DNA of 55,948 bases from a virus, in the IMG/VR virus record IMGVR_UViG_3300037473_000309; one strand, given 5' to 3'. The notes beneath the pieces were generated by a model, which saw only the letters and a list, made by a program, of their open reading frames with translations, was not told where the DNA came from and did no database searches. Positions 1,443 to 41,052 of this stretch are shown piece after piece. A program made the translations under genes and the position numbers. The first letter of the stretch is position 1. The number at the start of each line of letters is the position of its first letter.

Positions 1443-1907
1443 ATGGCATGGGTGAGTAGATGGAAAAGTAAATTTGCAACAATAGATTATGATAATTCAG
1501 ATTCTTTAGGAGTATGTGATCGTACAGGTTTTACCTTTAATACAAAAGATTTATGTCGTCAAATGGAATGGAGGGGTGACAATCTTGTATGGACAGGATT
1601 AATGGTAGGAAGGCCTTATTTGGATATTCCTAATGAACAAAATAGACCTCCTTTAGTTAAAAATGACCCAAGACCTATAAATGATGCAAGACCTCCAACT
1701 CCTTATCCTGATCCTGAGTATCCAGTAATAGGTACTTATGATCAAACTGTAGAAAGTCTTGAAAATGGAAGTTTTTTTAGTGAGAACGATCCACCTTATT
1801 ATGTTTTACAATATTCAAATGCTCCAACTCCTGGATGGAAAGATCCTAATCCTGTGCCAGATCCTAATGTTTTATTAGAAGAACTTAGAAAGGTAACATT
1901 TCAATGA
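1443..1907 (+). CDS. Structural-module protein of unknown function (Cys-containing N-terminus, Pro-rich C-terminus)
   Basis: 154-aa ORF with a 2-nt gap after the upstream gene. Its stop overlaps the patatin start (ATGA at 1904-1907). Confidence 0.5.
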   Translation: MAWVSRWKSKFATIDYDNSDSLGVCDRTGFTFNTKDLCRQMEWRGDNLVWTGLMVGRPYLDIPNEQNRPPLVKNDPRPINDARPPTPYPDPEYPVIGTYDQTVESLENGSFFSENDPPYYVLQYSNAPTPGWKDPNPVPDPNVLLEELRKVTFQ

Positions 1908-3106
1908 GTGATCCAAATACTGGCAGAATATTAGAGTTTGATGGAGGAGGGGAAAGGGGTTATATGTCTATGAAATTTTTTAACCGTTTTGTTCAACAAT
2001 GGGGAACTGATCCTACTACTTTATCGCAACAATTTGATGTAATTTGTGGCACATCTATTGGGGGAATAATAGCTCTTGCTCTTGCTGTAGGTAAAACTCC
2101 AGAAGATTTAATACCATTTTTTACTGAACAAGGACCTTTGCTTTTTACATTAGGGAGCAATGTATTTCCTCCTGTAGTATTTCCTCCAATTGTACCGTCT
2201 GTACGTCCAAATTCTGTTGAAAAAGTAGCTCTTATTATTACCAATATTCCGTTTTATAATTCTTCAGGTACTTATGCTAATGCTTATGGGTCAGGATTAC
2301 TTAAGACATTACTTGAGACCTTATTTGGTGATAAGACGATGCAGGATGTACAAGCAAATGTAATTATTCCAACATTTGAATATACTACTAAGACATTTGT
2401 ATTATGTTCCAATTTAGATAATCCTGCATTTAGTGGTCAAGATGAATTATTAAGTAATGTAGCATTAGCGACATCTGCTGCTCCTGTTTATTTACCTCCT
2501 CTAGAACTTACAAGTCCTATTAATACTAAATTAAACGGATTATTTTTTGATGGGGGAATATATCAAAATAATCCTTCTCAATTAGGATATACTCTTGGAA
2601 AAATGACAAAGCCGACTGCTAATAGGTTTTGTGTTTTATCAGTAGGTACAGGTGCAGGTGAGTATGGTTTTGATAATGATCCTATTTCATCTAATTTGTT
2701 AATTTTAGAGAGAGATAAAAAGAAATATACTCCTGGTACTACACTCCGAATGGTAGTACAAAAGATGGGGCATTCTGTAAAGAATTTAAATAAATTACAG
2801 AATAAAATGTTAGATTTACAAGTACAAGATATAGATTTTAATACTATTAAATTTTTATTTGAATTATTTAGTATAGCTTCTACGGGTGCGCAGGAATCAG
2901 GGGCACAATCTTTATTCTTAGAATCTAACTATACCTTAGATCAATTATATTATTATAGGTTTAATCCACCATTAGATCTTACTTTAGATCCTGCTTTAGA
3001 TAACACTTCACCTGAGATACTAACATATTATGAAGATTTAGCTAATCAAACTTATAATGATGATATAGAAAATATATCTACATTTTTGGGGCATTTGACA
3101 GCATGA
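1904..3106 (+). CDS. Patatin-like phospholipase
   Basis: All three patatin motifs are present: EFDGGGERGY (oxyanion G-G-G-x-R-G), CGTSIGG (G-x-S-x-G nucleophile) and FFDGGIYQNNP (catalytic D-G-G). Confidence 0.9.
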   Translation: MSDPNTGRILEFDGGGERGYMSMKFFNRFVQQWGTDPTTLSQQFDVICGTSIGGIIALALAVGKTPEDLIPFFTEQGPLLFTLGSNVFPPVVFPPIVPSVRPNSVEKVALIITNIPFYNSSGTYANAYGSGLLKTLLETLFGDKTMQDVQANVIIPTFEYTTKTFVLCSNLDNPAFSGQDELLSNVALATSAAPVYLPPLELTSPINTKLNGLFFDGGIYQNNPSQLGYTLGKMTKPTANRFCVLSVGTGAGEYGFDNDPISSNLLILERDKKKYTPGTTLRMVVQKMGHSVKNLNKLQNKMLDLQVQDIDFNTIKFLFELFSIASTGAQESGAQSLFLESNYTLDQLYYYRFNPPLDLTLDPALDNTSPEILTYYEDLANQTYNDDIENISTFLGHLTA

Positions 3107-39811: not shown

Positions 39812-39858
39812 ACGTGAAAAATAAGGTATAATATATAAGTAATTTTTAAAGGTCTAAA

Positions 39859-41052
39859 ATGACAACTAAATTTTTAAGAGGGATGTGCTATTCAGCATTT
39901 CCTTCAGGTTATAATCCATCTACAGCTAATAATACATGTATATTCTTTGGTAGTGATATTGCTACAAAGAATTTAAAACCATTATGGGGTAAGTCATTTA
40001 CACCTACTGATGGTCCTGATAAAGATAAAATCTTTTTAGGTAGAGATGATATATTAACTATGGCAAATATGGGTGTAAATCTTATAAGGTTATATGATTG
40101 GGATCCAAGGAATGATCATAAAAACTTCTTAGATTATTGTCATTCTAAGAATATTAAAGTTTTAGTACCTGTATCAAATTATAATTTAGGAGCATTTGGT
40201 ACTCCTCCTAATATGGATGAGTCTATAAAAGGATTACTAGAATCTTTTACATTACCTATTACTGAGGCTAAATGGGATAAAAAGTATGATAAACTAAAGG
40301 AAAATACTTTAATTAGGGAATATCACCCTGCTATAGCAGGTATAATAATAGGATCAGAATTAGATTTACCATCTCAAATGCCTAAGGGATATTTAGCAAA
40401 ATATACTAAAAGATGGGTAGAAATAGAAGATGAATATTTTCCTAAAAGATGGATACCGGAAGAATATAGAACATGGCTTAAAGTTCCAATAGGTCATCCT
40501 GTAAGTTTTGCAAAACATAATGGAGATTTTCCATGTTTTGAATTTTGGGATAATCTTTTAAATGAATTAAAGGGAATAGAAACTAGTGATTTACATAAGA
40601 GATTGATGCTATGTCCTCAATCTTACAATGAAGCATCTTATTTATTTGAAAATGCTGAAGGTAAGGGTAAAGGGTGGGTAGATATAGCTTATGAGAAATA
40701 TAACTTACCTATATTATTTACAGAAATAGGATGTAGTCGTTTAGAACGGGGTGATTATAATAATGTTATAGCTGCTCAATTAGAAAGGTCTTATGATTAT
40801 CAAAAGGAAAATCCTCAAAAGCTTTTAGGTACATGTTTCTTTCAATTCTGTGATAAAGTATGGATGGAAGGTACTACTGAAGGATCATTTGGGGTTTTTA
40901 CTAATACAAAGGATGTAGATAATCTTATAAGATATGGGGCAAAGGATTTCACTCATACAGATGGTAATGACTGTACAAAACAATCATTAAAAGTACAGGT
41001 TTTATTTGCTAATCCAGTATATAATACAATCAAATTGATATATAAGTTATAA
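39859..41052 (+). CDS. Clan GH-A (TIM-barrel) glycoside hydrolase resembling GH72/GH17 beta-1,3-glucan enzymes
   Basis: RGMCYSAFP, GVNLIRLYDWDPRNDHKNFLDYCHSKNIKVLVPV, IIIGSELD (acid/base Glu) and PILFTEIGCS (nucleophile Glu) match by eye the recalled GH72 motifs KGVAYQ, NT(I/V)RVY..DP..(N/D)HD.CM, GNEV and FFSEYGCN. Confidence 0.65.
   Translation: MTTKFLRGMCYSAFPSGYNPSTANNTCIFFGSDIATKNLKPLWGKSFTPTDGPDKDKIFLGRDDILTMANMGVNLIRLYDWDPRNDHKNFLDYCHSKNIKVLVPVSNYNLGAFGTPPNMDESIKGLLESFTLPITEAKWDKKYDKLKENTLIREYHPAIAGIIIGSELDLPSQMPKGYLAKYTKRWVEIEDEYFPKRWIPEEYRTWLKVPIGHPVSFAKHNGDFPCFEFWDNLLNELKGIETSDLHKRLMLCPQSYNEASYLFENAEGKGKGWVDIAYEKYNLPILFTEIGCSRLERGDYNNVIAAQLERSYDYQKENPQKLLGTCFFQFCDKVWMEGTTEGSFGVFTNTKDVDNLIRYGAKDFTHTDGNDCTKQSLKVQVLFANPVYNTIKLIYKL

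Follow-up and report, generated by a model that had tools for sequence, protein, structure and literature searches.

Wolbachia phage WO (Symbioviridae) carries a patatin-based lytic cassette together with a eukaryotic association module (PMC9203015, PMC5062602), and in this temperate serine-recombinase phage the module is a contiguous run of eukaryote-like domains situated by the recombinase and tail (PMC9203015). Further described systems are MAnkyphage_25.80 (OP381185.1), a phage of Megaira polyxenophila (Rickettsiales; George et al. 2023, Curr Biol 33:1982, cited via PMC10847448), and the sponge Ankyphages, whose accessory ankyrin proteins are proposed to act on the housing eukaryote (Jahn et al., bioRxiv 10.1101/608950).

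The window analysed here, by which we mean the whole 55,948-nucleotide stretch of DNA, had been read in a first-pass annotation as carrying seven ORFs (four with ankyrin repeats, a patatin, a glycosidase and a membrane protein) that would form a dispersed toolkit for association with eukaryotes. All seven are exact ORFs at the positions claimed for them, and they belong to four different classes, not to a single toolkit; ‘dispersed’ is apt for most of them, the exception being three (20170–22181) that are contiguous. The explanation that we favour, with moderate confidence, is that of an integrase-less podophage which would use a tail-coupled patatin of the CapV type for its own cycle, carry ankyrin genes as swappable units and infect a host likely to be of the Rickettsiales kind.

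Genome and virion genes

A 127-bp terminal overlap (1–127, assigned to neither strand, is 100% identical to 55822–55948) indicates that the window holds a complete circular or terminally redundant genome of 55,821 bp. This is the 55.8-kb low-GC genome of an uncultured podophage: it encodes a terminase, portal, capsid, adaptor, polymerase, helicase and primase, and among its 76 ORFs there is no integrase or recombinase, in agreement with the earlier claim for integrase. Megablast of the whole window against 50,697 phage records gave zero matches.

The tail block has as its first large gene the SU10-type head-to-tail adaptor (316..1440, plus strand; PF24175, E 3.8e-6; 32–37% identity to the tail adaptor of Roseobacter phage CRP-901), with a small ORF (55–306) upstream. 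The large terminase subunit (42298..43680), the portal protein (45704..48043) and the major capsid protein (53606..54511) are all on the plus strand; the capsid is 38% identical to the CRP-901 head protein and its relatives match Phage_capsid_4, and for the portal an SU10_portal match is precomputed for the 779-aa portal of a relative (L028) whose patatin is 95% identical to this one. By these comparisons the portal and adaptor appear to be of the SU10 type, and the capsid and terminase to be distantly related to those of CRP-901 and of Pelagibacter phage HTVC023P. Additionally, the plus strand encodes a 631-aa structural-block protein (9598..11493), whose sole homologue among catalogued phages is in MAnkyphage (E 2e-39), and a 166-aa protein (32375..32875) with 34.5% identity to the MAnkyphage DUF5681 protein. 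On the minus strand, an SNF2-type helicase (18591..19907) and the DNA polymerase (22175..23938) form the two borders of a variable polymerase–helicase island; the protein at 17484–18140 has no relative in the PDB. No endolysin was found in this genome by Pfam or PHROGs. Shine–Dalgarno-like motifs, whose use had been proposed, precede 43% of genes against a background of 11%. For the sigma70-type promoters proposed with them, the 153 sigma-70-like sites show no enrichment over the 160 expected from shuffles.

A CapV-type patatin paired with a tail fibre

The gene at 1904..3106 (plus strand) encodes a CapV/CapE-like patatin phospholipase of 400 aa. It passes PF01734 (E 1.5e-23; 84.5 bits against a gathering threshold of 27.7) and has the motifs DGGGERG, GTSIG (Ser51) and DGG (Asp216), i.e. 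the complete catalytic signature that had been claimed, with a Ser51–Asp216 dyad and an oxyanion loop; the dyad and the GGG of the loop are invariant in 121 of 121 homologues, and Arg18 in 119 of these. The protein matches NCBIfam CBASS_lipase (E 2.6e-41) and the PADLOC CBASS phospholipase effector (E 5.8e-50), and in Foldseek searches AbCapV (E 1.8e-17, TM about 0.6–0.7) and CapE rank first, with VipD (E 6e-7, TM 0.3) and ExoU (E 2e-4, TM 0.2) far behind. Over residues 6–260 the closest matches in both sequence and structure are CapV and CapE of CBASS, which have the Ser–Asp dyad and GGGxRG loop in common with it, whereas the C-terminal 140 residues differ and are phage-specific, with region 331–400 conserved; the score remains below the CapV equivalog cut-off NF041079 (141.9 vs 200 bits, over profile positions 2–215 of 317 only). 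In further contrast to CapV/CapE, this patatin is phage-encoded and lies in a tail operon, and a Pfam scan of all ORFs of at least 60 aa detected no cyclase/nucleotidyltransferase or other defence partner of a CBASS system. Considering profiles and the predicted fold together, we suggest that the patatin is a phospholipase of the bacterial CBASS-effector type with its catalytic residues intact, which replaces the ExoU-type lipase of the first-pass annotation. A secreted effector of the ExoU/VipD type was rejected, given the Foldseek values for CapV and ExoU and a C terminus that has no extra targeting domain such as those of ExoU and VipD.

Since its closest characterized relatives are CapV and CapE, the patatin might also be conceived as a weapon against CBASS: a copy of CapV, captured by the phage, which would sequester the host's cyclic-nucleotide signal or poison the filaments that CapV forms. 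We regard this as very improbable: a decoy would have no need of the invariant dyad and GGG (or of the nearly invariant Arg18), the gene is coupled to a fibre in the tail operon and is not among the small accessory genes, and both the equivalog score and the divergent C-terminal 140 residues speak against it.

The patatin has the adaptor, a 154-aa protein and a tail fibre as its neighbours. The stop codon of the 154-aa gene (1443..1907, plus strand) overlaps the patatin start by 4 nt, and the start of the tail fibre gene (3103..5652, plus strand; three internal repeats at 4322–5063) overlaps the patatin stop by 4 nt, so that these successive overlaps point to translational coupling. In related loci the 154-aa gene lies directly upstream of the patatin in 33 of 63, and a homologue of the fibre N terminus starts −60 to +150 nt from the patatin end in 48 of 63. 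This pairing extends to loci without a homologue of this capsid or adaptor, and in one relative (L011) identity is 77% for the patatin but only 60% for the capsid. We suggest that the patatin and the N-terminal ~135 aa of the fibre constitute a two-gene module that may be mobile between low-GC phage backbones. The best 120 patatin homologues (45–100% identity) are every one on contigs of ≤65 kb, and patatin-bearing loci have a GC content of 32–44%, compared with 33–65% in patatin-less capsid relatives. Since in the closest patatin-less relative (L034) an unrelated 153-aa gene occupies the patatin slot, a virion of this design can do without the lipase.

Most likely the patatin would serve the phage's own breaching of membranes, acting on the host envelope at entry or, alternatively, through membrane disruption at exit, as proposed for WO; it is probably not an ExoU-like toxin against a eukaryote. 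That the pairing of lipase and fibre is conserved on different phage backbones suggests that phage entry or exit includes a step directed at lipids; whatever the host, this would be a case of a defence-effector fold put to use by a phage.

Ankyrin cassettes, glycosidase and Vut-like protein

The four ORFs claimed to carry ankyrin repeats all exceed the Pfam Ank_2 gathering threshold of 27.3 bits: 5966..6418 (plus strand; E 2.4e-23, 82.9 bits), 20170..20625 (minus strand; E 6.4e-9, 36.7 bits), 21234..22181 (minus strand, 315 aa; E 1.8e-23, 83.3 bits) and 35459..35929 (plus strand; E 8.4e-17, 62.0 bits). The first corresponds to a clean indel (5949–6447), present in relatives of 95–98% identity and with the same site empty in more distant ones, and the second to another (20171–20691), in place of which a 98%-identical strain has about 10 bp. 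Homologues of the 315-aa protein occur on four contigs only, the closest two being phage-sized 56-kb relatives, and in relatives L114 and L178 they lie on the opposite side of the Vut-like gene. The fourth lies among small accessory genes on the plus strand and yielded no homologue in the relatives sampled. Ankyrin genes were detected only in close relatives and MAnkyphage, and not in the wider patatin-bearing set (of which ~20 kb around the patatin was sampled). The ankyrin genes thus appear, from these comparisons of strains, to be independent single-gene cassettes of ~500 bp that are gained, lost and relocated between close strains. None of the four proteins has a signal peptide (maximal 10-residue hydropathy 0.03–1.06 within the first 35 residues). 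Their products may be fast-turnover binders of host proteins and, if the bacterium inhabits eukaryotic cytoplasm, lysis would release them directly into the eukaryotic cell.

The ORF at 39859..41052 (plus strand) lies directly upstream of the terminase, a position in which relatives keep it at 59–68% identity. Its predicted model is a confident TIM barrel (pLDDT 90.9), and E167 and E289, at the positions expected of the clan GH-A catalytic pair, are invariant among 30 homologues, with N166 nearly so. The top Foldseek matches are all GH-A families, GH72 Gas2/Gel4 first (TM about 0.5) and then GH1 and GH2, and the sequence profile order is GH2, GH17, then GH72. The protein is, on model and profiles, a clan GH-A (beta/alpha)8 glycosidase whose family is not assignable; of the earlier GH72/GH17 assignment the clan GH-A barrel stands. 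Membership of GH72, a family not known outside fungi, was rejected: the Pfam GH72 score (PF03198) is 24.8 bits where 25.9 are needed and covers 47 residues only, just 7 of 30 family members match GH72 at E < 1e-3, and both GH2 and GH17 outrank it by profile. This glycosidase may act as a lysis or glycan-clearing enzyme. Upstream, at 39006..39402 (plus strand), are two small proteins of 66 and 74 aa, each with an N-terminal hydrophobic segment and no family match, which look holin- or spanin-like; their tails are charged, repetitive and, by eye, coiled-coil-looking.

The Vut-like protein (20695..21249, minus strand), earlier called VUT/YhhQ-like, has several transmembrane-length hydrophobic stretches, and it is the constant element of the polymerase–helicase island. 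The likeness is limited to the C-terminal half and falls just short of Vut_1 (PF02592; 26.9 vs 27.2 bits) and well short of TIGR00697 (24.3 vs 50.95 bits), although a 98%-identical variant has a precomputed PF02592 match; the Pfam scan of the genome's ORFs revealed no partner of the tgt or dpdA type. It is a conserved hydrophobic protein, probably of the membrane, with a marginal likeness to queuosine-precursor transporters. Because searches with this protein and with the 315-aa ankyrin protein gave only phage relatives, neither points to a donor or host.

These results bear on the reading of the seven ORFs as a dispersed toolkit comparable to the WO module, with an ExoU-like patatin and a glycosidase directed at the beta-1,3-glucan of eukaryotes. 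In agreement with it, the ankyrin and patatin assignments hold, GH72 heads the structural matches of the glycosidase, and the genome is linked to Megaira and Wolbachia phages. Nevertheless we think it unlikely and the term over-stated, given that the patatin is far from ExoU/VipD and sits in the tail operon, coupled to the fibre (as in the 48 of 63 loci above), that the GH72 and Vut scores are sub-threshold, that the ankyrin proteins have no signal peptide, and that, when a eukaryotic association module of the WO type was sought, no recombinase was found, nor any eukaryote-like domain besides ankyrin in any ORF. For the glycosidase and the Vut-like protein no link to eukaryotes is demonstrated.

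Host and relation to known phages

Matches to the patatin among the 50,697 phage records are confined to MAnkyphage, two huge phages that are uncultured and six records of Wolbachia WO; the protein at 9598–11493 matches MAnkyphage alone, and the ankyrin protein at 5966–6418 matches WO records only. Considering this gene pool in common with the Megaira phage, we suggest that the host is most likely a bacterium of the Rickettsiales kind, AT-rich, intracellular and associated with protists. To that extent the intracellular or eukaryote-associated host that had been claimed agrees with the matches to Megaira and WO phages; the occurrence of relatives in open water does not. A point that counts against our favoured explanation as a whole is that protein identity to the Megaira phage is only about 32%.

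A free-living AT-rich host from water or soil (e.g. a SAR11/LD12-like alphaproteobacterium), with the patatin, ankyrin proteins, glycosidase and Vut-like protein all acting within or on the bacterial cell (in lysis, host takeover or anti-defence) and no eukaryote involved, is possible, although we consider it less probable than not by a good measure. In its favour, the terminase and capsid relatives of this genome include Pelagibacter and Roseobacter phages and Pelagibacteraceae single-cell contigs, open lake and river water are among the sources of relatives, and the patatin is of a type that attacks bacterial membranes in CBASS. Moreover, three ankyrin genes lie within the replication and small-gene accessory blocks, where early host-takeover genes usually sit, and may on that account be read as a sign of host takeover; that all four proteins are without a signal peptide also fits such a host. 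Set against this, the cultured HTVC023P-type and CRP-901 phages yield no patatin match in the same collection, the Pelagibacteraceae contigs share capsid-block genes only (no homologue of the patatin, fibre or 9598–11493), and the catalogued phages with the patatin–fibre pair, the 9598–11493 protein or similar ankyrins infect Rickettsiales endosymbionts only. Further, four ankyrin genes in 56 kb would be unusual for phages of free-living bacteria.

A scan of genome collections with the capsid gave 80 loci (36–63% identity), none with patatin and no usable host link; since most were contigs assigned to MAGs and SAGs from a wide range of unrelated phyla, the bin labels are unusable as hosts. The ‘Bacteroidota’ label on the closest capsid locus (63%) was distrusted, as Shine–Dalgarno enrichment, found here, does not fit Bacteroidota. 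Similarly, a Caedibacter varicaedens assembly was set aside as a host hint, its capsid (43%) being no closer than the 36–42% background and its GC content 49%. Patatin-bearing relatives come from Great Lakes surface water and one freshwater metagenome, the two sample identifiers that the literature resolved and settings in which free-living AT-rich hosts are abundant; several of the JGI samples are probably soil or rhizosphere. In IMG/VR, the scans with the polymerase and primase used word patterns too specific to recover any relatives, and that with the helicase gave one 98% variant only.

Only a handful of phages are known from obligately intracellular bacteria, chiefly WO, the microviruses of Chlamydia and one Megaira phage. 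It is conceivable, and we put it forward only tentatively as a doubtful extension, that this genome belongs to a large clade of strictly virulent 54–65-kb phages, spread over a wide geographic range, of Rickettsiales-like endosymbionts of freshwater protists (and perhaps, judging from sample ids, of soil protists). Its domesticated CBASS CapV-type lipase, coupled to the tail fibre, would serve to cross the membranes of the bacterium and possibly of the host vacuole, and its rapidly shuffling ankyrin proteins would be freed into the eukaryotic cytoplasm when the bacterium lyses. At least 120 distinct patatin homologues are found on phage-sized contigs; if this lineage does infect such hosts, its relatives would amount to a large pool of virulent phages at work within protist cells, with a bearing on the control of endosymbiont populations and on tools for Rickettsiales that resist genetic manipulation.

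Among cultured phages, Roseobacter phages CRP-901/902 and the HTVC023P-type podophages of Pelagibacter have the nearest terminase (41%), capsid (38%), portal (29%) and adaptor, and they share with this genome a GroES-like gene and the order of the head genes. In contrast to this genome, they have no patatin, ankyrin or GH-A glycosidase homologue (tblastn), they have other replication modules and free-living marine hosts, and CRP-901 has genes of its own annotated as chitinase, lysozyme and peptidase. Cultured relatives of the backbone infect free-living marine Alphaproteobacteria.

The sponge Ankyphages resemble it in their phage-borne accessory ankyrin proteins, but two of three sponge phage ankyrin proteins have an N-terminal signal peptide and are predicted to be secreted (none of four here has one), and the available part of that preprint describes no patatin. 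WO likewise has a patatin-like phospholipase and ankyrin genes beside tail genes, and in neither phage is a canonical endolysin recognized; homology is weak (patatin about 25%, the 5966–6418 ankyrin protein 30%). WO differs in being temperate, with a contractile tail, a baseplate and a large serine recombinase, where we find an integrase-less podophage, and in having a contiguous module, where we find ankyrin genes scattered singly. MAnkyphage has a patatin (32% identity, full length) directly upstream of and overlapping its tail fibre gene, a homologous fibre N terminus (30%), homologues of the 9598–11493 protein (32%) and of the DUF5681 protein, ankyrin genes, low GC (34%) and podovirus-type tail genes. 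It differs, however, in its size (38 kb), its T7-like tail tubular proteins and its unrelated capsid, portal and terminase; its resolvase, RelE/ParE pair, lysozyme and lytic transglycosylase are not found here, and its ankyrin proteins are not detectably orthologous to these four. Ankyrin and patatin traits are already known from phages whose bacterial hosts live within eukaryotic cells, and the genome described here is an integrase-less podophage variant of that theme, which may likewise infect such a host.

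The patatin lipase and its tail fibre partner

The patatin signature that the first-pass annotation had reported as complete at 1904–3106 is indeed so: the ORF passes the Pfam call and has all the catalytic motifs. The protein is closest to the CBASS phospholipase effectors (NCBIfam CBASS_lipase, E 2.6e-41, under the equivalog cut-off; PADLOC CBASS phospholipase effector, E 5.8e-50), and the best structural matches of its AlphaFold model (pLDDT 83) are AbCapV and CapE (E 1e-17 to 1e-14). VipD and ExoU, which are secreted effectors, match the model far worse (TM 0.2–0.3), and on this fit the protein does not classify as an ExoU-type effector. 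Nor is the locus a CBASS system, since a Pfam scan of the ORFs of 60 aa or more matched no cyclase or nucleotidyltransferase family. A protein search returned 805 homologues, the best 120 of which are 45–100% identical and all lie on contigs of ≤65 kb, many of them 54–62 kb long. All 121 aligned members have Ser51, Asp216 and the oxyanion-loop GGG, and 119 of them have Arg18; conservation is also strong over the C-terminal 70 residues.

The start and stop codons of the patatin gene overlap codons of its neighbours on both sides, and in the related locus L011 the patatin is 77% identical to that of the window, as against 68% for the adaptor and 60% for the capsid. In 48 of 63 loci a homologue of the fibre N-terminus starts between −60 and +150 nt from where the patatin ends; the other loci are mostly truncated contigs. 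The pair is also found in loci without any homologue of the window's capsid or adaptor, and so has moved between phage lineages; considering both the co-location and the presence on other backbones, patatin and fibre N-terminus constitute a mobile two-gene module. Viral contigs carrying the pair with no detectable capsid or adaptor homologue are L133, L138, L151, L154, L156, L158, L160–L166 and L171. The patatin slot of L034, the closest patatin-less relative, is filled by an unrelated 153-aa gene. These comparisons show a catalytically intact lipase, of a kind known to degrade bacterial membranes, that is passed on together with the fibre gene.

We suggest that this lipase may act in breaching membranes at entry or exit, in line both with the lytic cassette built on a patatin that has been proposed for WO (PMC9203015, PMC5062602) and with family scans of the ORFs, which recognized no endolysin anywhere in the genome. 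Candidate holins or spanins are two small proteins (39006–39402) just 5′ of the glycosidase gene, each of which has a single hydrophobic segment at its N-terminus and a charged tail, coiled-coil in appearance when read by eye, and an 88-aa hydrophobic protein (18216–18482) with two transmembrane-length stretches.

Ankyrin cassettes, glycosidase and Vut-like protein

All four ankyrin ORFs (5966–6418, 20170–20625, 21234–22181 and 35459–35929) pass the Pfam gathering scores. DNA alignment with relatives revealed clean indels around ankyrin genes: 5949–6447 is swapped for about 41 bp in L011, and in a 98%-identical strain some 10 bp stand in place of 20171–20691. At least four arrangements of the polymerase–helicase interval occur among the window and its relatives. 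Read from polymerase to helicase, the window has Ank315 (21234–22181), the Vut-like gene (20695–21249) and Ank151 (20170–20625); L027, the 98%-identical strain, is without Ank151; the related locus L114 has a 51-aa ORF, the Vut-like gene and Ank333; and a further relative, L178, has the Vut-like gene, thymidylate kinase, a 44-aa ORF and Ank383. The thymidylate kinase gene of L178 (9237–9881) takes the place of an ankyrin cassette of the window. This island behaves as a general accessory-gene slot, and the alignments show rapid turnover of the ankyrin cassettes. The 315-aa ankyrin protein has just four homologues among 5.8 billion proteins searched, the two closest on 56-kb related-phage contigs and the other two weak and on short contigs. 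A hydropathy check found no N-terminal hydrophobic region in the four ankyrin proteins, the patatin or the glycosidase.

The ORF at 39859–41052, previously described as GH72/GH17-type, holds its place in clan GH-A but not in GH72, the Pfam match being sub-threshold and limited to 47 residues. It belongs to a small family, for which a search of 1.84 billion proteins gave 173 representatives, with two invariant glutamates at the positions expected of the clan GH-A catalytic pair. The model is confident (pLDDT 90.9) and matches GH72 folds first (TM ~0.5, 12–13% identity), then GH1 and GH2; a sequence profile ranks GH2, GH17, GH72 and GH158 in that order; taken together, these results identify a clan GH-A enzyme whose family is not assignable. 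In two relatives the gene (59–68% identity) lies directly upstream of the terminase gene. The VUT/YhhQ likeness of the protein at 20695–21249 is marginal, just sub-threshold for Vut_1 (0.3 bits short) and far under the cut-off for TIGR00697; only three homologues are detectable, all in close phage relatives. Membership of GH72 (glycosidase) or of YhhQ (Vut-like protein) is not demonstrable.

Genome organization

Bases 1–127 are identical to 55822–55948, so the window represents a complete 55,821-bp assembly, circular or terminally redundant. It contains three tRNA genes, and its GC content is 22–34% in 2-kb windows. Family scans of 76 ORFs place a plus-strand structural block up to 18482 (SU10-type adaptor, 316–1440; tail fibre, 3103–5652; large virion proteins), closed by the 88-aa protein; a minus-strand replication block (SNF2 helicase, DNA polymerase, Enc34-type single-strand binding protein and DUF2800 exonuclease); and a second plus-strand block with primase/VapE helicase, many small genes, terminase (42298–43680), portal, GroES-like protein and capsid (53606–54511). 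The scans found no integrase, recombinase or partition gene among these ORFs, which bears out the remark that no integrase is visible. No close DNA-level match occurs among 50,697 phage records; among cultured phages, CRP-901 of Roseobacter has the nearest terminase (41%) and capsid (38%), and the HTVC023P-type phages of Pelagibacter come next.

The GroES-like (Cpn10) gene (49251–49751), between the portal and capsid genes, is kept throughout the capsid family, including CRP-901 (gp61). Tandem paralogues 33–37% identical lie 3′ of the capsid gene (54532–55194 and 55195–55866), with three copies in the relatives L010 and L011. Two large, consecutive virion proteins (14056–15546 and 15549–17480) have a common glycine-rich N-terminal motif, encoded by stretches with 77% DNA identity (14537–14617 and 15652–15732). 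A 61-nt direct repeat (52428–52488 and 52537–52597, 95% identical) occupies the gap 5′ of gene 52635–53531, just ahead of the capsid gene. The GC-rich motif GATGCGCCC occurs at least seven times, in either orientation, at 28636–28890, inside the roughly 1.2-kb non-coding region separating the divergent replication and primase blocks. These copies probably form an array of iterons or operators, and possibly the replication origin; ORF 28678–28875 within the array is likely spurious. ORFs 23942–24208 and 35160–35462 overlap tRNA-Tyr (24130–24214) and tRNA-His (35113–35189), respectively, which casts doubt on where they are called to start or on whether they are genes at all.

Host association and relation to ankyrin- and patatin-bearing phages

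A tblastn search with the patatin against the 50,697 phage records gave nine matches: MAnkyphage, the phage of Megaira polyxenophila (32% identity, full length, annotated 'patatin | tail fiber'), six Wolbachia WO records and two huge uncultured phages. Three more genes are common to the window and MAnkyphage, namely the fibre N-terminus, the protein at 9598–11493 (for which MAnkyphage is the sole match among phage records, E 2e-39) and a DUF5681 protein; of the shared genes, the ones with a functional placement (patatin, fibre N-terminus, a protein of the structural block) come from the tail/virion block. The ankyrin protein at 5966–6418 matches only WO among phage records. The sharing with MAnkyphage fits related hosts, though identities are low. 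GC content is 32–44% in patatin-bearing loci versus 33–65% in patatin-less capsid relatives. On the other side, some phages of the capsid family have been seen in single cells of Pelagibacteraceae, and patatin-bearing relatives come from a freshwater metagenome and Great Lakes surface water. These occurrences fit the main rival reading, a free-living host in which the functions are purely intrabacterial, which we consider less likely. An intracellular or eukaryote-associated host, as originally proposed, is plausible and better supported than before, although the searches yielded no direct link to a host. A 2.7-kb contig of a Paramecium-endosymbiont assembly (Caedibacter varicaedens, BBVC01000106.1; L035; 49% GC) carries a capsid gene 43% identical to that of the window, with adaptor and 154-aa protein homologues, and is no closer than other relatives.

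We suggest that the ankyrin proteins may bind host proteins and, if the host is a cytoplasmic endosymbiont, could reach the eukaryote upon lysis, without secretion. In sponge Ankyphages, by comparison, two of the three ankyrin proteins are predicted to be secreted (Jahn et al., bioRxiv 10.1101/608950), whereas none of the window's four has an N-terminal hydrophobic region. All seven coordinate pairs of the first-pass annotation are exact ORFs. Its observation is largely right, and its interpretation of these ORFs as a toolkit is over-extended. Finally, the window is of one kind with WO and MAnkyphage, phages that carry both ankyrin and patatin genes. Its backbone is another one, of virulent appearance; it lacks a eukaryotic association module, and its ankyrin genes are cassettes scattered over the genome.
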